From Patescibacteria group bacterium (lineage in GTDB: Bacteria; Patescibacteriota; Minisyncoccia; UBA6257; GWB1-50-10): a stretch of 64,000 nucleotides of DNA. The notes below the pieces were generated by a model. That model saw nothing but the letters and a program-made list of their open reading frames with translations, was not told where the DNA came from and did not search any database. Position numbers and translations under genes: made by a program. The stretch is taken from positions 83,116-147,115 of the forward strand of contig JBFLWN010000002.1 of NCBI GenBank assembly GCA_040757555.1, given 5' to 3'. Shown here in pieces: positions 4,999-50,822 of the stretch; position 1 is the first letter of the stretch; each line of letters starts with the position of its first letter.

Positions 4999-6696
4999 CT
5001 AAATTATCTCTGCGTTGTAGCACGTCTCGCAGTAGATGATCTCTGGCCTCTCCGACGAATAAGAAGTCTCAAATTTATTTACACATTGTCCATTATGACC
5101 GTGAGATAATTCTTTGCACATACATTGTCGATGCCAAAGTTTTCGAGGTGGACGAAGTGATATGCGCTTTCGATAGCGACATTCTGGACAATTTCTGGGG
5201 ATCGGAATATTCATTCGCTTATAAAACTCGACTTCGGGATCAACCACATTATAATTTCGATCGCATGAAATACAGGTGAGCGCTTCTTTTGTTATTGAAT
5301 CTGATACATCGACAATAGTATCGGGAATTTGATCGGGGGAAAGAGTTCCCTTTCCACGGGTTACTCGAACGTCATCCTGCCATCGAAATCCCCGAGAAAT
5401 TGCAATCTCTTTCTCCATCGGCATATAGATATCTCCATGGGTCTCGTTATATCCGAAAGGAGATAATGCGGGAGGAAAAAATTCACCATATTCTCCTCTC
5501 TTTTTCATTTCTTCAACGAGCTCACTTTTTATGTGCTCATACTCCTCTTCCGAATATTGCGTATTTAAAATACAATATTCTCCTTTTCTCACACCAACAC
5601 ATCCAAAAAGATTTTGTGAATTATGGCATGAGTCACAATAATCTATAAACGTGTTCTCATATGAGAGATGACAAAACCTCACGTTCGATGCATTGGTAAG
5701 TGCATGCGATTCATAGGTAAGCTCGGTTGTCCCCAATCCAACACTCAAAAGGTCCATCGAATCCTTCGCAATAACGATTGCGCTATGACGAACATTCTCG
5801 CTGTCGTAGGCATAATAGCCATTATATATATTTCGGGAATTATGAATTTCATCCCCCACCACATTCTGTGATTTTTCTATCTGTGCATATTTGTGTATTC
5901 CTTTATGTTGAATAATATCAATCCATTTTTTATACAGTTCCGCGCGTTCTCGATATGATCCCAAATTAAATTCTTTCAATTTTTTGTCGTACTCCTCTTT
6001 CGTCAATTGTTCATTTAAAAAACAGTATTTTTTATTCCTTAAATTCCAGCTCAAGAAACAATTTTGACAATTAGTACAATCAAAACAATATTTACACTCA
6101 ATACTGTCATGCACAAAAAAACAAAATTCACACTTAAAATCCCTATCACAATGAAAACATTCATATAAAAACTCTCCCCCTTCGTATGCAAGATTTACAT
6201 CACAGGAGTCTTTTGTGCCATTCCAACAATTGCTCAAATAAAATCCATTTTCACAATTAAAACAGTCAAATGAAAGATATACATTTTTATTGTCCGCCGA
6301 ATGGTTGGTATATTCACTGTTTACAGAATTTTTTCCAAGAAGTGCAACCCGCGGAACCTTTAATTGTAATTCTTTAAATTGTTCAAAAAACGGGCGATTT
6401 ATATCTATCTTCATTGCAAAATCCATAGGACTCCACGTATCTCCCCACCAACACGTATGACAATACACCTTATATGGTGCGTCAGGATGATAAATCGTCA
6501 CTGTTGATTTTCCACACAAATCACAGTTCCTTCGATAGAGGTTACGTTCATTTCGCCATGCATAACGCCTCATCTGCCGACAATCAGGACACCACATTGG
6601 TAGTGGAACATTTATTTTCCCGTAAAATTCAAAATCTTCACTCTCGAGGGTGAAGTTGTGTTTGCAGTTTTGACATTGCTTTGTCTCAGCATTCAT
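4999..6696 (-). CDS. Cys-rich multi-zinc-ribbon protein, paralog 2 of 5 (565 aa)
   Basis: Tandem with paralog 1 (14-nt gap). Same architecture: MNAETKQCQNCKHNF...MWCPDCR; CKYCFDCTNCQNC...LRNKKYCFLNEQLTKEEYD; CDSCHNSQNLFGCVGVRKGEYCILNTQYSEEEYE; C-terminal NCPECRYRKR...CETCYNAEII. The start codon and 12 upstream nt are identical to paralog 1. Confidence 0.8.
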   Translation of the reverse strand: MNAETKQCQNCKHNFTLESEDFEFYGKINVPLPMWCPDCRQMRRYAWRNERNLYRRNCDLCGKSTVTIYHPDAPYKVYCHTCWWGDTWSPMDFAMKIDINRPFFEQFKELQLKVPRVALLGKNSVNSEYTNHSADNKNVYLSFDCFNCENGFYLSNCWNGTKDSCDVNLAYEGGEFLYECFHCDRDFKCEFCFFVHDSIECKYCFDCTNCQNCFLSWNLRNKKYCFLNEQLTKEEYDKKLKEFNLGSYRERAELYKKWIDIIQHKGIHKYAQIEKSQNVVGDEIHNSRNIYNGYYAYDSENVRHSAIVIAKDSMDLLSVGLGTTELTYESHALTNASNVRFCHLSYENTFIDYCDSCHNSQNLFGCVGVRKGEYCILNTQYSEEEYEHIKSELVEEMKKRGEYGEFFPPALSPFGYNETHGDIYMPMEKEIAISRGFRWQDDVRVTRGKGTLSPDQIPDTIVDVSDSITKEALTCISCDRNYNVVDPEVEFYKRMNIPIPRNCPECRYRKRISLRPPRKLWHRQCMCKELSHGHNGQCVNKFETSYSSERPEIIYCETCYNAEII

Positions 6697-13919: not shown

Positions 13920-13931
13920 GAGGAATTTTTG

Positions 13932-14002
13932 TGCGGGATACGGGAATCGAACCCGTGTCTCAACCTTGGGAAGGTCGCATTCTACCACTGAACCAATCCC
14001 GC
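13932..14002 (-). tRNA. tRNA-Gly (anticodon CCC)
   Basis: Minus-sense GCGGGATTGGTTCAGTGGTAGAATGCGACCTTCCCAAGGTTGAGACACGGGTTCGATTCCCGTATCCCGCA. Acceptor GCGGGAT/ATCCCGC, anticodon loop TTCCCAA, T-loop TTCGATT. Confidence 0.85.
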
Positions 14003-19486: not shown

Positions 19487-19557
19487 CGGGCTGTAGTATA
19501 CCGGTAGTACGCATGCATGGGGTGCATGTAGACCGGGTTCAATTCCCGGCAGCCCGA
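19487..19557 (+). tRNA. tRNA-Pro (anticodon GGG)
   Basis: CGGGCTGTAGTATACCGGTAGTACGCATGCATGGGGTGCATGTAGACCGGGTTCAATTCCCGGCAGCCCGA. Acceptor CGGGCTG/CAGCCCG, anticodon stem CATGC/GCATG, loop ATGGGGT, T-arm CCGGG-TTCAATT-CCCGG. Confidence 0.85.
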
Positions 19558-19600
19558 CATAATTATAAAATCTCGCTTTATGCGGGGTTTTATAATTTAT

Positions 19601-19717
19601 GATGTGTTGGGAATTGAAGGGAACCACGAGCGCATATGGGATATGAATAAGCGAGTGGTCCCTGGTTTCGAAGGAGGAGTGAAACGACGGGAGAGAAAAA
19701 TTCCCGGCAGCCCGACA
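19601..19717 (+). repeat. tRNA-Pro-linked repeat unit 1 (inverted T-arm copy at 5' end, direct copy of tRNA 3' end at 3' end)
   Basis: gggaattgaa at 19609-19618 is the reverse complement of the tRNA-Pro T-loop plus stem (ttcaattccc). ttcccggcagcccgaca at 19701-19717 is a direct copy of the tRNA 3' end. Preceded by an AT-rich hairpin at 19558-19600. Confidence 0.6.
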
Positions 19718-19744
19718 ACGGAGAGATGAAAGTTCGCACTTGAG

Positions 19745-19880
19745 TGCGAATTGTCGGAAATTGAAGGGCGGAGCGATGTGTATTCAGCAGAATGCACCGC
19801 GAGCCCGGGCTCGAAACCTTTTTGAGTGACGGCGAAAAAAGAGTTGAGAGAATTCCCCCCATACCGACATAATTATAAAA
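19745..19880 (+). repeat. tRNA-Pro-linked repeat unit 2 (diverged tandem copy of unit 1)
   Basis: ggaaattgaaggg at 19756-19768 and gaattccccccataccgacataattataaaa at 19850-19880 (compare the tRNA's aattcccggcagcccgacataattataaaa). Aligns with unit 1 along its length (GAGCG, TCGAA, GACGG, TTCCC..CCGACA). Confidence 0.6.
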
Positions 19881-21877: not shown

Positions 21878-22579
21878 TTATTTCATATTCTCTAACAAAT
21901 CTAAATCCCCATCCAATACCTCTTCTACGCGAGAAATTTTAATCCCCGTCGCATGATTTTTGACTTGTTTATAGGGATGCAACACATATGATCGAATTTC
22001 ATGTCCCCACTCTGGTTTTACCTTCACTTTCAGATTCTCTATGGCGGTTTCGTGTTTTTCTTGCATAAGTGCAATAAGTTTAATCTTCAAAAGTTCCATT
22101 GCCTTATCCCTATTCGCGCTTTGTGAGCGCTCCGATTGCGAAGAAATCACAATTCCAGTCGGTAAATGACTCACCCGCACGGCAGTTTCCACTTTATTTA
22201 CATTTTGCCCACCGGGCCCCGATGAACGGAAAAAATCGGTTTTTATATCTTTCTCGGGAATCTGGATTTTTGAAACTTCCACCTGTGGCAAAATCGGCAA
22301 CACTTCAACAAGTGCAAATGAGGTGTGTCTCAGTTTTTTTGAATCGAACGGAGAAATACGTACCAAACGATGCACCCCCGATTCCCCTTTCAAATATTCA
22401 TACACCCCATCACCCCTCAGAGAAATTGTGATATCATTCACGAATTGTTTTTTCCATCCTTTTTTATCCGCGCATTTTTCATACATCCGAAGAAGCATCT
22501 GTGCCCAATCTTTTGCATCATCTCCCCCTGCCCCCGCGAGCACCGAAAGATACACGCCGTTATAATTTGTTGAATTCAT
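21878..22579 (-). CDS. prfB: peptide chain release factor 2 lacking N-terminal domain 1 (233 aa)
   Basis: SPF tripeptide (RISPFDSKK) and GGQ (SSGPGGQNVNKV). Begins at the residues that follow the frameshift site in canonical RF2 (YLSVLAGAGGDDAKDW). An in-frame stop lies 2 codons upstream and only 30 nt separate it from the upstream gene. Confidence 0.8.
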   Translation of the reverse strand: MNSTNYNGVYLSVLAGAGGDDAKDWAQMLLRMYEKCADKKGWKKQFVNDITISLRGDGVYEYLKGESGVHRLVRISPFDSKKLRHTSFALVEVLPILPQVEVSKIQIPEKDIKTDFFRSSGPGGQNVNKVETAVRVSHLPTGIVISSQSERSQSANRDKAMELLKIKLIALMQEKHETAIENLKVKVKPEWGHEIRSYVLHPYKQVKNHATGIKISRVEEVLDGDLDLLENMK

Positions 22580-22608: not shown

Positions 22609-24387
22609 TTAAACCACTTCCGCCTGATAACAACTCTCACAATAGACAATCTCTGTTCTATCGGGAGAATAATTTGTTTCAAACCCATTTGGACAAGAAT
22701 CCTTTCCGTGAATATGTGTAGAAGTATTTTGGTATATTCCATTTTCTGATTTCTCACCTCCACACTGACACTTTCGATACCAATGTTTTATCGTATTACG
22801 ACGTTTTAATCTAGTATAATGCCGACAATTGGGACAAAGCCGCGGAAGCGGAATATTCATAAGTTTATAAAATTCAAGTTCTGACCGAATAATTCTAAAT
22901 GCTGTTGTACAATTATCTTTACATTTTCCTTCATGAGCGCACCCAATAACCTCGTCAAGGATACCGTCACCCGCATCTTTCGCATATGCAGGAAGTTCAC
23001 TTGGTTTTCTTGTAATAGAGTAATTCTTTGTATCAACTATGTGCCAATTAAATCCATTTTCCATTGCCTCTTCCATTGTGAATGGTAAATGTTCTTGATC
23101 CGGAGTCTCATTATATCCAAGGGGTGAAAACTCTGCGGGAAAAAATTCTCCATACTTGTAACTCCTTCCTATTTTATCCTTATAAGGTACCCCACTCATC
23201 TGCTGAACCAATTTTTCAACGAGTACCCCATATTCTTCTTTTGAATATTGTTTGTTGAGAATACAGTATTGTTTATTCCGAAGACCAAAACATCCAAAAC
23301 AATCCGAGGTGGAGATGCAGCTCCCACAATATTGAAGATTTTTTACATTCGTCCAACATTGAAAGCAAAATTTAATATTATATGCACCATCACCGATTTG
23401 ACTACTTTCATACACCAATTCATTACCGATAAAAGTGGAAAGATCATAACAATCTTTATTGGGGCCCGCCTGAAGATACTGACAATACTTAATATCTTCG
23501 CCATCTCTTATTAAAAATGAATTTTTTACATTTTTTGATTGATTAATATAATCCCCCGTAACATCTACATTTTTTGTTCCCTCCATAAATTTTACCGGAA
23601 AATTAAGCCAAAAATTTATTGCCTTCATTTTATATTCCTCAAACAGATCATAGGAACCAGAGAAAATTTTTTTTATTTCTTCTCCATATTCTTCTTTTGA
23701 ATATTGTTCGTTAAAAATACAATAACTTTTGTTTCGCATATTTACACACCCAAAACAATCAGAACATCCCCTTAAATTCTTCGAAAAATAAATATCAAAA
23801 CAGTCTTCACAATTTTCTGAATACACCGCCCTATTGCACCGCGTAAGCCAGAATCCTTCATAACAGAGTTCACTGTGAGAAATATGGGAGTTGTCGAAAC
23901 AACTCTTCGAATAGTCGATGCCGTTTGAATATGCAGAATCTTCCGAATAATTCCCGTTAAAACAAAGATAGCAATTTTTAAAGCCGGTACACTGATTCGA
24001 ATAATCACTTGCTACCGGGTTTATTACGCTTTTTGCGCGCCAAGGAACATCATGCCAAAGTTCAAGAATTTGTTGTAAAAAAGGTTTTGTGAAATCAATA
24101 TTTCTTCCATAATCCATTGGATCCCATTTATCAGAATTCCATATATCGAGTTCATACACCTTTATAGGTGCATCCGGAGCACATTGAGAAAAAATCATTT
24201 CCCCAGAAAAATCGCTTTTTCGCTTGTACAGAAAATGCTCATTACGAAATGCAAATCGTCGTTGAAAACGACATATCGGACACCACGTTGGTGGAGGCAC
24301 ATCTATTTTTTTGTAGAAATCAAAATCTTCACTCTCAATAGTGAAGTTATTATGGCAATTCTGACACGTTTTTACCTCCGAACTCAT
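22609..24387 (-). CDS. Cys-rich multi-zinc-ribbon protein, paralog 3 of 5 (about 592 aa)
   Basis: MSSEVKTCQNCHNNFTIESEDFDFYKKIDVPPPTWCPICRFQRR. Central CSDCFGCVNMRNKSYCIFNEQYSKEEY and CGSCISTSDCFGCFGLRNKQYCILNKQYSKEEY. C-terminal LCPNCRHY...CESCYQAEVV. The second and third N-terminal CxxC pairs are lost (SDFSGE, ELDIW). The start was trimmed from the track's 24495 because that extension reads through a tRNA-Thr 3'-end copy. Confidence 0.75.
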   Translation of the reverse strand: MSSEVKTCQNCHNNFTIESEDFDFYKKIDVPPPTWCPICRFQRRFAFRNEHFLYKRKSDFSGEMIFSQCAPDAPIKVYELDIWNSDKWDPMDYGRNIDFTKPFLQQILELWHDVPWRAKSVINPVASDYSNQCTGFKNCYLCFNGNYSEDSAYSNGIDYSKSCFDNSHISHSELCYEGFWLTRCNRAVYSENCEDCFDIYFSKNLRGCSDCFGCVNMRNKSYCIFNEQYSKEEYGEEIKKIFSGSYDLFEEYKMKAINFWLNFPVKFMEGTKNVDVTGDYINQSKNVKNSFLIRDGEDIKYCQYLQAGPNKDCYDLSTFIGNELVYESSQIGDGAYNIKFCFQCWTNVKNLQYCGSCISTSDCFGCFGLRNKQYCILNKQYSKEEYGVLVEKLVQQMSGVPYKDKIGRSYKYGEFFPAEFSPLGYNETPDQEHLPFTMEEAMENGFNWHIVDTKNYSITRKPSELPAYAKDAGDGILDEVIGCAHEGKCKDNCTTAFRIIRSELEFYKLMNIPLPRLCPNCRHYTRLKRRNTIKHWYRKCQCGGEKSENGIYQNTSTHIHGKDSCPNGFETNYSPDRTEIVYCESCYQAEVV

Positions 24388-24446
24388 ACCAAAATTATAG
24401 TAGAAAACACCATAAAACAAAAATATTTCTTTCAAAATATTTTTAG

Positions 24447-24600
24447 TTGAGCCAATGGTCGGCAATTGAACGTCGCTTTTCAAACTCCCTGACACCTTGC
24501 GGTTTCAGTGCTTCCACCACGGGAAAACTCCCGTTTTCCCGATCCCTTTCCCGTTCAAATCCGACACGCAATAAAAAATACTCTTTTCAGAGTGTTTTTT
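24447..24600 (-). repeat. tRNA-Thr-linked repeat unit (AT hairpin, inverted T-arm copy, direct copy of tRNA 3' end)
   Basis: Minus-sense order after the tRNA: hairpin aaaaaacactctgaaaagagtatttttt; then gtcggatttgaac (revcomp of the tRNA-Thr T-arm gttcaaatccgac; plus-strand coordinates 24553-24565); then a spacer; then gttcaattgccgaccattggctcaa at 24447-24471, which copies the tRNA's last 16 nt ccgaccattggctcaa. Confidence 0.55.
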
Positions 24601-24607
24601 ATTATTG

Positions 24608-24680
24608 AGCCAATGGTCGGATTTGAACCGACGACCCACGCTTTACGAAAGCGTTGCTCTACCAACTGAGCTACATTGGC
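24608..24680 (-). tRNA. tRNA-Thr (anticodon CGT)
   Basis: GCCAATGTAGCTCAGTTGGTAGAGCAACGCTTTCGTAAAGCGTGGGTCGTCGGTTCAAATCCGACCATTGGCT. Anticodon stem ACGCT/AGCGT, loop TTCGTAA. Confidence 0.85.
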
Positions 24681-24726
24681 GATACACCCTTTTAGTCCCC
24701 GACCGAAATCGTCGGGGAATACAAAG

Positions 24727-49361: not shown

Positions 49362-49432
49362 TTAGTTTATTGGGGGATCGTCTAACGGTAGGACACCGCC
49401 CTTTGGAGGCGGGTATCGGGGTTCGAATCCCT
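49362..49432 (+). tRNA. tRNA-Gln (anticodon TTG)
   Basis: TGGGGGATCGTCTAACGGTAGGACACCGCCCTTTGGAGGCGGGTATCGGGGTTCGAATCCCTGTCCCCCAG. Anticodon stem CCGCC/GGCGG, loop CTTTGGA; close to canonical bacterial tRNA-Gln. Confidence 0.8.
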
Positions 49433-49477
49433 GTCCCCCAGCAAATATAAATTAGGCACATCTTTATGGTGTGCTTA

Positions 49478-49609
49478 ATTTATATCTCGTTGAAGGGATT
49501 CGAACGGAACTTTTGCGCATGCATTGCATGAAAAAGCAAAAGTCCGTGGCTTCGGAGGAATCCCGCCATCGGCGGGATGGAGGAGAAGGAATCCCTGTCC
49601 CCCAGCAAA
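49478..49609 (+). repeat. tRNA-Gln-linked repeat unit (same organisation as the Pro and Thr units)
   Basis: After an AT-rich hairpin (aaattaggcacatctttatggtgtgcttaattt) comes ttgaagggattcgaacgg (T-arm-derived, 49484-49501), then an internal hairpin aatcccgccatcggcgggat, then ggaatccctgtcccccagcaaa at 49588-49609, which copies the last 22 nt of tRNA-Gln plus trailer. Confidence 0.55.
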
Positions 49610-49610
49610 A

Positions 49611-49645
49611 AAAGAAAGCGACACAAAATGTCGCTTTCTTTATAT
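49611..49645 (+). terminator. Rho-independent terminator (gaaagcgacacaaaatgtcgctttc + T-run)
   Basis: Hairpin at 49614-49638 followed by tttatatttt. Confidence 0.6.
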
Positions 49646-49658
49646 TTTATTCAGTTAT

Positions 49659-50822
49659 CTATTTCCATTCCTTCACTACTTGCCATTTTATATTAAGTGC
49701 GGCACCAAGAGTTATCGCTACCGCAATAGATGTCACAATCCAACCCAGGAAAGGTATCGCACCAAGAAGTACATATACTATCGTGCCAAGTAATATGGTT
49801 TTCCAATTGATAATATAATCCGATTTTTTGAATATCCACTTGTACACGAGAGTGCCCATAACTATCGGAGTGATTATCGCCGCATAGATGCAAAGCATTA
49901 CAAAAGAAAGTAGTCCGAGTATACCGAGAGGAATTCCTATAACAGAAACAAGAAGAATAATCGAAAGCACCGGAAGCACAATGAAAGTAACCACACCACG
50001 CCCAAGTTCCTTGAGTGGGTTTGTAGTGGCTTTTTCCACGAGTTCCTTGCTGTACCGACGGAACATAAGTCCGACGATAAGAGCTGCAACCAATAACATT
50101 ACAAATTTTGCGAGAAGCATCAAAGTAAAGAACCCAAATATTCCCTTTCTTGTATCTTTCTTCATTCCCTCACTCCCTTTTAATTGGGTGAAAACAGTTT
50201 CTCCCCGTACCTTACCTCCCTCTTCTATAACGACGGGATTTGGTGATTCATATTTAAGATTACCTTTTATGTCCGCATCCGGTCCCAAAGTTAAATTTCC
50301 GGCTTTGATATCCACATTGCCTCCGATAGGCGCATTCACATAAACTTTTCCACCGGCAATTTTTACACTTCCCTTTACTTCGGAATCCATTCTCACGGTT
50401 CCACCTGCCATTACTGCATCTCCACCTATTAATTTACCCGACAGGATTAGTTGTCCTCCGCCCACAAGAACATCACCCACAACATCACCATTCACCGTGA
50501 TGTTTCCCCCACCCACGCGCATATCTCCAGAAACCTGACTCAAAATTGTTATATTACCGCCTACGACAAATAAATCGCCTGCAATCGGCCCCGATATGAG
50601 TGCTGTGCCACCGGCGACCAAAAGATCCTTATCTACGCTTCCCGCACTAATAACGGTTCCACCTGCCATATACAGATTCCCTTCTGTTTTTTCTCCAGAA
50701 GTGAATGCTGATTGCTGTCCCGCTCTGAATTCCGCGGCAGATACCAAAACGGGAAACACAAATACAAACAAAGCCAATACCACGAGCACCTTGTTAAAAT
50801 TTTTCATATACATATTATACAC
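49659..50822 (-). CDS. bactofilin-like beta-helical repeat protein with signal peptide and C-terminal multi-TM domain
   Basis: Signal peptide (KVLVVLALFVFVFPVLVSA). More than six GD..VxGG..xI/V repeats typical of polymer-forming bactofilin (PF04519-like). C-terminal about 150 aa with 4-5 TM helices. Confidence 0.5.
   Translation of the reverse strand: MYNMYMKNFNKVLVVLALFVFVFPVLVSAAEFRAGQQSAFTSGEKTEGNLYMAGGTVISAGSVDKDLLVAGGTALISGPIAGDLFVVGGNITILSQVSGDMRVGGGNITVNGDVVGDVLVGGGQLILSGKLIGGDAVMAGGTVRMDSEVKGSVKIAGGKVYVNAPIGGNVDIKAGNLTLGPDADIKGNLKYESPNPVVIEEGGKVRGETVFTQLKGSEGMKKDTRKGIFGFFTLMLLAKFVMLLVAALIVGLMFRRYSKELVEKATTNPLKELGRGVVTFIVLPVLSIILLVSVIGIPLGILGLLSFVMLCIYAAIITPIVMGTLVYKWIFKKSDYIINWKTILLGTIVYVLLGAIPFLGWIVTSIAVAITLGAALNIKWQVVKEWK

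Follow-up and report, generated by a model that had tools for sequence, protein, structure and literature searches.

Why should an intact tRNA gene be followed by a second copy of its own 3′ end, with a structured stretch of DNA that encodes no protein lying between the two? The question is raised by the tRNA-Gln locus at positions 49362-49645 of a 64-kb chromosomal stretch from a bacterium of the Patescibacteria (candidate phyla radiation, CPR), the whole of which is referred to here as the window. On balance, and by a modest measure, the gene-less unit that fills this locus is probably a non-coding member or derivative of an insertion system that targets tRNA 3′ ends and leaves the tRNA intact through duplication of its 3′ segment. 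The evidence comes from the anatomy of the locus, from related units beside two other tRNA genes in the window and from relatives in which the same position is occupied by a small nuclease gene.

The tRNA-Gln locus

The locus is made up of the following parts, where S denotes the 14-nt segment corresponding to tRNA positions 61-74, AS the antisense arm and L-numbers, here and below, the loci fetched for comparison.

49371-49442, + strand: intact tRNA-Gln(UUG) (ARAGORN; Rfam tRNA model, 60.2 bits at 49371-49441)
49429-49442, + strand: S0, tRNA positions 61-74 (ccctgtcccccagc), the segment that is duplicated downstream in every unit and cassette
49445-49485, + strand: H0, an 18-bp terminator-like hairpin with loop tctttatg, directly 3′ of tRNA-Gln (alignment fold)
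49494-49505, + strand: AS, AGGGATTCGAAC, the perfect reverse complement of tRNA positions 54-65 (reached in 0 of 2000 shuffles; RNA fold)
49504-49547, + strand: P2, a long hairpin with an A-rich internal loop (RNA fold; alignment fold against L195)
49546-49561, + strand: mid, gtggcttcggaggaat, a degenerate sense copy of the T-stem 5′ strand and T-loop (read from the sequence)
49560-49578, + strand: P3, a perfect 8-bp hairpin, atcccgcc-atc-ggcgggat (RNA fold)
49579-49592, + strand: purine-rich tail, ggaggagaaggaat, adjoining the copy and resembling the tails gtaggata and gaaggata of the nuclease cassettes described below
49593-49606, + strand: S2, a 14-nt copy of tRNA positions 61-74, within the exact repeat 49589-49609
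49611-49641, no strand assigned: bidirectional terminator-like hairpin that closes the locus and is shared with the convergent gene at 49659-50822

The tRNA 3′ end and its copy form an exact direct repeat of 21 nt, gaatccctgtcccccagcaaa, at 49425-49445 and 49589-49609, which spans the last four bases of the T-loop, the 3′ strand of the T-stem, the 3′ strand of the acceptor stem, the discriminator and four bases of trailer. The two copies start 164 nt apart and are separated by 143 nt. An earlier note on this DNA had recognised the arrangement, but as a copy of 22 nt at 49588-49609 with five trailer nucleotides, about 155 nt downstream of a source placed at 49411-49437; the copy is real, though it is one nucleotide shorter because the preceding base differs (c against g), and the source had been placed about 8-14 nt away from its actual position. 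The CCA end of tRNA-Gln is not encoded, the discriminator G being followed by CAAA. All four tRNA genes of the window (13931-14002, 19487-19558, 24607-24680 and 49371-49442) have CA(A/T) rather than CCA after the discriminator, so that C74 is encoded and the remainder of the CCA end is not.

The AS is complementary to the T-loop and the 3′ strand of the T-stem. The same note had read the motif that opens the unit (49490-49507) as a T-loop in the sense orientation. It is in fact antisense, an orientation that is easily overlooked since TTCGAA is palindromic, and that is proven by the Pro and Thr units described below, in which the T-loops are not palindromic and the arms are antisense nonetheless. 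In the predicted fold the arm may pair either with the downstream copy, forming helix P1, or with the 3′ part of the tRNA itself across H0, and a blastn self-comparison gives an inverted match over 49421-49505. The AS as part of a reversed tRNA pseudogene was considered and rejected, as beyond the arm the minus strand has no equivalents of the T-stem or the anticodon arm.

H0, which separates the tRNA from the remainder of the unit, had been overlooked. It is kept in L195 with compensatory changes, a G-C pair becoming A-U and a G-U pair becoming A-U (alignment pairs 3-43), and its 8-nt loop is also found in the equivalent hairpin of L173. The internal GC hairpin at 49560-49578 and the closing terminator-like hairpin at 49611-49641 are both present as the note had described them; co-transcription of the unit with the tRNA, which it had drawn from the latter, is doubtful, since the conserved 18-bp H0 stands between the two. 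P2 also differs from its counterpart in L195 by changes within pairs (A-U to U-A and C-G to U-G), and its apex, GCGCAT-N7-ATGAAWAAGC, is common to the Gln unit and the first of two Pro units, with covarying stems. P3, on the other hand, is exchanged in L195 for an unrelated AT-rich hairpin of 35 nt between identical flanks. A small open reading frame (ORF) starting at 49577 is not credible, as it reads through the terminator.

Units at other tRNA genes and in relatives

Four tRNA genes were identified in the window by ARAGORN (Gly, Pro, Thr and Gln), and three of them carry units, as had been noted before. The two tandem units of tRNA-Pro are named U1 and U2, that of tRNA-Thr U3 and that of tRNA-Gln U4; no downstream 16-mer copy of its own 3′ end was found for tRNA-Gly.

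19559-19717, + strand: U1, with terminator hairpin, AS gggaattgaa (19609-19618), P2, mid, tail and copy
19718-19869, + strand: U2, in tandem and of another core type, with short hairpin (loop ttga), AS ggaaattgaa, P2, P3 and decayed copy
24448-24606, - strand: U3, with terminator hairpin, AS, hairpins and copy

The order of parts is the same in every unit: hairpin, AS, P2, mid, P3, purine-rich tail and tRNA 3′-end copy. The first hairpin is terminator-like in U1, U3 and U4 and short with a TTGA loop in U2. The copy in U1 is exact over 19 nt (19699-19717, matching 19541-19559 at the 3′ end of the tRNA-Pro gene at 19487-19558), that in U2 is decayed (ccccccataccgac, 19855-19868) and that in U3 (ccgaccattggctc, 24462-24449; tRNA-Thr at 24607-24680) has an indel in its T-loop part. 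Always included are tRNA positions 61-74, and the exact repeats in the window are of 19-25 nt. Exact or near-exact 16-mers of the 3′ ends begin 142 (Pro), 142 (Thr) and 148 (Gln) nt past the end of the tRNA, and no further exact 16-mers of these ends occur on either strand of the window, where about 1e-5 would be expected by chance and about 1e-8 in a 400-nt downstream zone. Equally long matches at random positions, which the earlier note had named as the finding that would speak against its view, are accordingly absent from the window. The arms are perfect reverse complements of the T-loop and T-stem 3′ strand of their cognate tRNAs over 10 nt (Pro), 13 nt (Thr; gtcggatttgaac, 24565-24553, antisense at 13 of 13 positions) and 12 nt (Gln); in 2000 shuffles, inverted matches of these lengths came up 3, 1 and 0 times, respectively. 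The repeats and antisense arms are confirmed to be non-random and specific to each tRNA. The suggestion of a systematic process rather than chance is borne out by this shared architecture together with the homologous core of the Gln unit and U1, which comprises the P2 apex, TGGYTTCGRAGGA and the tail, with covarying stems and tRNA-specific ends.

Pairing of the AS with the downstream copy is predicted to close a three-way junction, in which 8-13 bp consist of T-loop and T-stem sequence, and the AS together with the tRNA 3′ part across the first hairpin makes an interrupted palindrome of about 85 nt. The match of the arm to the functional tRNA is still exact where the distal copy has decayed (U3 and L084), and the AS of U2 still matches the tRNA T-loop despite the intervening U1. 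RNA folds of the units are more stable than those of shuffled sequences (z = -3.2, -2.8, -3.4 and -1.6). The three core types were not aligned consistently by MAFFT. In Rfam 15 only the tRNAs were matched, both with gathering thresholds over the whole window and in E-value mode over the three unit loci, the best non-tRNA matches being far under threshold (sraL, for example, with 22.7 bits against 39). No core motifs of the hammerhead or other small ribozymes were found by eye in the units, and the P2 core motif had no matches in a scan of viral contigs and was absent from the first 160 loci.

The window also encodes, among others, rpoB/rpoC, fusA, dnaX, ftsEX and ssb, and its nearest relatives by dnaX and FtsX are metagenome-assembled genomes (MAGs) labelled Patescibacteria, Paceibacterota or Saccharibacteria. 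A module orthologous to that of the Gln locus is found in L195, which has the order tRNA-Gln (1 nt different from that of the window), GIY-YIG nuclease cassette, S, module and S. The two modules are 92.5% identical over 133 nt, with H0, AS, P2, mid and tail all kept, and six of six substitutions in the predicted stems preserve pairing. The L195 module stands in a genomic context different from that of the window, and its arrangement makes the Gln locus of the window a cassette-free version of the L195 locus.

The presence of units varies between relatives. L081 and L082, the nearest at the ftsX locus with about 87% nucleotide identity, have neither U1 nor U2; in L082 tRNA-Pro is followed by no more than an insert of 44 nt, and in L081 the tRNA-Pro is a different one, behind which a remnant of the 3′ end of the window type is left. 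In the more distant L084 a U2 homologue follows tRNA-Pro, with 40 predicted pairs in common, 10 of them changed on both sides, and an AS that tracks its own T-loop, which has G57 instead of A57. These two type-B units, U2 and that of L084, have no terminator between them and the upstream sequence. At the dnaX locus two variants of tRNA-Gln replace each other among close relatives, leaving remnants of the other variant (L003 and L161). For gene-less units the comparison of occupied and empty sites is across species only (L082 without U1 and U2, L162 without the Gln module). Decay of the distal copy is seen in U2, U3, L084 and L195.

Several smaller features were seen at tRNA genes and remnants of the fetched loci. 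The displaced tRNA-Pro 3′ copies of L081 (5880-6700, - strand) and L084 (2470-2520, - strand) are split at 65|66, between T-stem and acceptor stem, by related hairpin inserts of 30-38 nt, which read tt[ag]cccgtccg...gaagg[ct]ggg and make up a second type of small insertion. A motif of about 45 nt, cgaacgWaggYgagg.ag.tactgagc.cag.ag.gcgaatgt.cc, with a covarying 4-bp hairpin, follows the tRNA-Pro 3′ end in L082 (5963-6012) and a tRNA-Pro-like remnant in L196 (2903-2948), and the leader of U2 (19718-19755) resembles it; it may be a Pro-linked non-coding motif. In L152 (1114-1185), a Patescibacteria contig, tRNA-Gly(CCC) is followed 5 nt on by a degenerate second copy of itself. L003 has a perfect 18-nt palindrome, cctgcctgcgcaggcagg, at 5494-5511 within the D-loop of a disrupted second tRNA-Gln copy, and a GIY-YIG ORF just upstream of the intact one. 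A match to the antisense motif in L051 is not a unit; it is a fragment on the minus strand that looks like the 3′ end of a tRNA-Ser.

Nuclease cassettes in the same position

The slot, which lies between the intact tRNA and the displaced copy of its positions 61-74, sometimes with a few more bases, is also filled in relatives by a cassette of about 350 bp that encodes a GIY-YIG nuclease ORF of 83-108 aa (Pfam PF01541 match) and nothing else. In L162, where dnaX is 89% identical to that of the window, tRNA-Gln is followed by the GIY-YIG ORF and then by ccctgtcccccagc, the copy of positions 61-74. Cassette loci were gathered by searching with the L162 protein and taking contigs that encode its relatives, and the ORF is in the slot in L195, L162, L173-176, L185-194 and L202. 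The cassette leader starts right after position 74 and the tail adjoins an exact 14-nt S in L162, L173/L174, L185, L195 and L202. Cassette sites with the 14-nt duplication are at tRNA-Gln, in several variants that include the UUG and CUG isoacceptors, and at tRNA-Asn; where a decayed tRNA remnant takes the place of the gene, the cassette is flanked by copies that are partial (L177) or unclear (L163). According to a local hidden Markov model (HMM), such ORFs are present beside tRNAs in most of the fetched loci.

In the relatives the cassette is found singly or in tandem, with further cassettes or with a gene-less module, and truncated forms are a shortened cassette in L196 and, in L202, a remnant that retains just the leader. 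L173-L176 have an array of tRNA-Gln, gene-less module, S, cassette and S, in which the module comprises a hairpin with the 8-nt loop of H0, a perfect AS of 13 nt and two hairpins. L174 equals L173 plus one 371-nt cassette with its S directly after the tRNA, with flanks that are 100% identical over 1470 and 1973 nt. The motif GGCTTCGGA...GAAT within mid is also found in the leader of the cassettes. Outside the Patescibacteria, a tRNA-Ser gene of the Acidobacteria with a GIY-YIG ORF is followed, 333 nt downstream, by 12 nt that repeat its 3′ end exactly.

Small GIY-YIG ORFs directly after tRNAs were seen at L035 (1280-1651) and L080 (6471-6821), in MAGs not labelled Patescibacteria: one is this tRNA-Ser case, in which the displaced copy has a GC-rich hairpin insert in its T-loop, and the other is at tRNA-Gln in a MAG labelled Gammaproteobacteria. 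At L163 (1900-1990), where the cassette follows a decayed tRNA, a 27-nt repeat, ccacattcccaagtttagaattgcatg, stands three times in tandem in the leader.

Origin of the units

It would seem likely, from the slot and segment that they have in common, that gene-less units and nuclease cassettes are parts of a single system of insertion at tRNA 3′ ends. In such a system DNA would enter the tRNA gene at or just 3′ of the junction of T-loop and T-stem or, equivalently, right after position 74. With the last 14 nt on both sides of the insert, tRNA function would be preserved and the distal copy, now dispensable, would be free to decay; repeated insertion beside the tRNA would build tandem arrays such as U1-U2 and L174. 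By analogy with homing, the GIY-YIG protein would drive insertion through break repair, cutting unoccupied sites, with repair from an occupied copy spreading the insert and linked tRNA variants, and the gene-less module would move, or be co-converted, with the cassette. The constant 14-nt extent at differing tRNAs suggests that the duplication is made at insertion, though each insert might instead carry a matching 3′ end, and decay of the distal copy fits a displaced original end. As the helices of the module are kept under substitution, it would not be random debris; a non-autonomous passenger that needs to fold as one strand, or a non-coding component of the system that is maintained, would account for them. 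An AS that spans 60|61, a P2 kept across tRNAs and a swappable P3 likewise point to the folding of a single strand, of RNA or DNA, as important for the module.

Several observations weigh against this reading. The local HMM found no GIY-YIG ORF in the window, so that an active partner in this genome is unproven, and the cores of U1, U3 and U4 have no significant homology to the cassettes by tblastn or by Smith-Waterman comparison with shuffles; common to both are only the slot, the S repeat, the short GGCTTCGGA motif and a similar tail. The AS is in every gene-less module and in no cassette, for which the model has no explanation. Since L173 may derive from L174 by deletion between S copies, the comparison of these alleles is no proof of insertion. 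Single-domain GIY-YIG proteins of this kind are not known to have the DNA-binding domains of classical homing enzymes, and both the nuclease activity and the target of the cassette protein are putative. The helix-preserving changes could also come in part from templated correction within DNA palindromes rather than from selection. The same tblastn and shuffled Smith-Waterman comparisons gave nothing for U1, U3 or U4 as decayed GIY-YIG coding sequence. A match between the L082 insert and the end of the L162 ORF (score 22, 0 of 500 shuffles) was weakened by finding the same 45-nt motif beside the tRNA-Pro-like sequence of L196.

A further and quite improbable proposal is that the gene-less modules are self-addressed non-autonomous elements, the 10-13-nt AS over 60|61 being a re-writable address. 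The arm would pair with the target strand, or fold with S so as to reproduce the target duplex, and a structure-specific small GIY-YIG nuclease or some other host enzyme would insert the module with a 14-nt duplication; if so, this would amount to nucleic-acid-programmed targeting of tRNA genes by an element of about 150 nt.

Could the units instead serve the host as structured RNAs, transcribed with or after the tRNA, for example as 3′-trailer RNAs in processing, stability or regulation? The three-way junction and tRNA-like 3′ tail would then be the active parts, and the tRNA-derived arms would serve to fold the RNA or pair with the tRNA. The stability of the folds (z from -1.6 to -3.4), the G-U pairs in helices on the tRNA-sense strand, substitutions that keep pairing, an AS perfect to the functional tRNA even where the distal copy is decayed and the type-B units, which no terminator separates from upstream sequence, are all consistent with this. 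It is nevertheless unlikely. Units are absent at the same tRNA in L081 and L082 and at most of the Patescibacteria tRNA loci examined, tRNA-Gly manages without one, they stand in tandem, with nuclease cassettes alternating between them, P3 is wholly exchanged from one orthologue to the other, three of the four window units (U1, U3 and U4) come after a terminator-like hairpin and no Rfam family is matched. That the whole arrangement is a neutral by-product of local mutation, with nothing mobile, is very unlikely indeed: template switching at the terminator hairpin would make the AS and slippage would duplicate the 3′ end, as might be read from the one long interrupted palindrome formed by the tRNA 3′ part, H0 and AS, from the capacity of palindrome-templated correction, as it is generally understood, to mimic compensatory change and from small palindromic insertions in other tRNA remnants (L003, L081 and L084). 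Such a process does not account for the homologous internal core of the Pro and Gln units, which derives from neither tRNA, for the same module with tRNA-Gln in another genomic context (L195) or for the same 14-nt extent at no fewer than five different tRNAs, equal to that of the nuclease cassettes.

The earlier note had thought of an integrase, and the units might be attL/attR scars, left where a tyrosine-integrase element entered the T-loop region, supplied a replacement 3′ end and was then almost wholly deleted. A direct repeat from the T-loop to just past the 3′ end is reportedly (Williams 2002) the usual signature of tRNA-targeting integrases, integrative elements also accrete in tandem, and tRNA 3′-end fragments are common debris in these genomes (L051, L085 and L161). 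No recombinase or mobile-element domain, however, was found by Pfam among 20 window ORFs that included the neighbours of all three unit loci, and no recombinase in the precomputed Pfam listings of loci obtained by way of the nuclease protein; what fills the slot in relatives is the small GIY-YIG ORF, and complete inserts of about 350 bp hold nothing else. Four independent deletions would not leave the same ordered structure of 145-165 nt, nor is there a core site resembling the T-stem 5′ strand directly beside the copy. A scar of this kind is an improbable explanation, and the idea of an integrase-type process is not upheld.

The favoured insertion system most resembles free-standing homing-endonuclease genes in that the nuclease ORF of relatives lies at the end of a conserved gene, with the 3′ segment duplicated and the displaced end decaying, in the presence/absence polymorphism shown by the cassette and in an apparent co-conversion suggested by the swaps of tRNA-Gln variants. 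The Seg genes of T4, including SegB in the tRNA cluster, are reportedly free-standing GIY-YIG homing-endonuclease genes. The mobile ORF of the Allomyces mitochondrial atp6 gene, attributed to work of Paquin, Laforest and Lang in 1994, is likewise said to be a free-standing GIY-YIG gene that brought a replacement 3′ end for its host gene. The Gln unit has the duplicated 3′ segment of a homing cassette, as an exact 21-nt repeat, and a tRNA scored as intact; unlike such a cassette it has no endonuclease ORF inside the insert (HMM and tblastn). The nuclease of the relatives is a bare catalytic domain of 83-108 aa, the 14-nt duplication is constant at different tRNAs and AS-bearing gene-less modules share the slot, all of which differ from the homing genes.

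Other known systems are similar in part. As at the tRNA sites of tyrosine integrases, as these are generally understood, the insert lies between directly repeated 3′ parts of a tRNA that itself survives, and arrays are tandem; the repeat of the Gln unit does run from inside the tRNA to its 3′ end. There is no integrase gene in its 143-nt insert, though, and in contrast to tyrosine-integrase and cis-mobilisable elements no integrase was found, inserts are of 150-550 bp, the repeat starts at the T-loop/T-stem junction and seems to be of fixed length, and intrastrand structure is conserved. The attP(+) site of CTX-phi and attC sites of integrons offer a likeness by analogy alone, in that inverted copies of the target about 90 nt apart (AS and S) can fold to recreate the target duplex and structure is conserved more than sequence; here the target is a tRNA T-arm rather than dif or attI, the fold is a three-way junction, no link to Xer or an integron integrase was found and no candidate recombinase for the folded strand came to light. 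Miniature inverted-repeat transposable elements (MITEs) and casposons share the short, gene-less form, inverted ends, a target-derived duplication of possibly fixed length and several copies with related cores, and casposons make duplications of 14-15 bp at tRNA 3′ ends. The ends of the units are specific to the tRNA and not to the element, however: AS and S vary from copy to copy in keeping with the local tRNA, in place of the shared element-specific terminal inverted repeats of a MITE. No transposase or Cas1 was found, and there are four copies in 64 kb. Conserved helices with an AS matched to each tRNA are not explained by any described type of element. Neither GIY-YIG cassettes that sit at tRNA ends with a duplication of 14 nt nor AS-bearing gene-less companions were found described in a literature of which the coverage was limited, so that this is weak evidence.

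If the favoured insertion system is real, tRNA genes of Patescibacteria would be recurrent landing sites for minimal selfish cassettes that spare tRNA function and appear to carry tRNA sequence variants between genomes. This would bear on the turnover of the tRNA gene set in reduced genomes, on tRNA annotation, given the frequent 3′ fragments and pseudo-copies, and on the role of the very common small single-domain GIY-YIG proteins.

Three minor features were noted near the Thr unit. Downstream of it a 628-aa ORF (22609-24495) has no Pfam match; a 233-aa ORF with PCRF and RF-1 release-factor domains (21878-22579) looks short for a release factor; and a perfect GC hairpin, ccccgac-gatttc-ggtcgggg, lies directly upstream of tRNA-Thr at 24694-24720.

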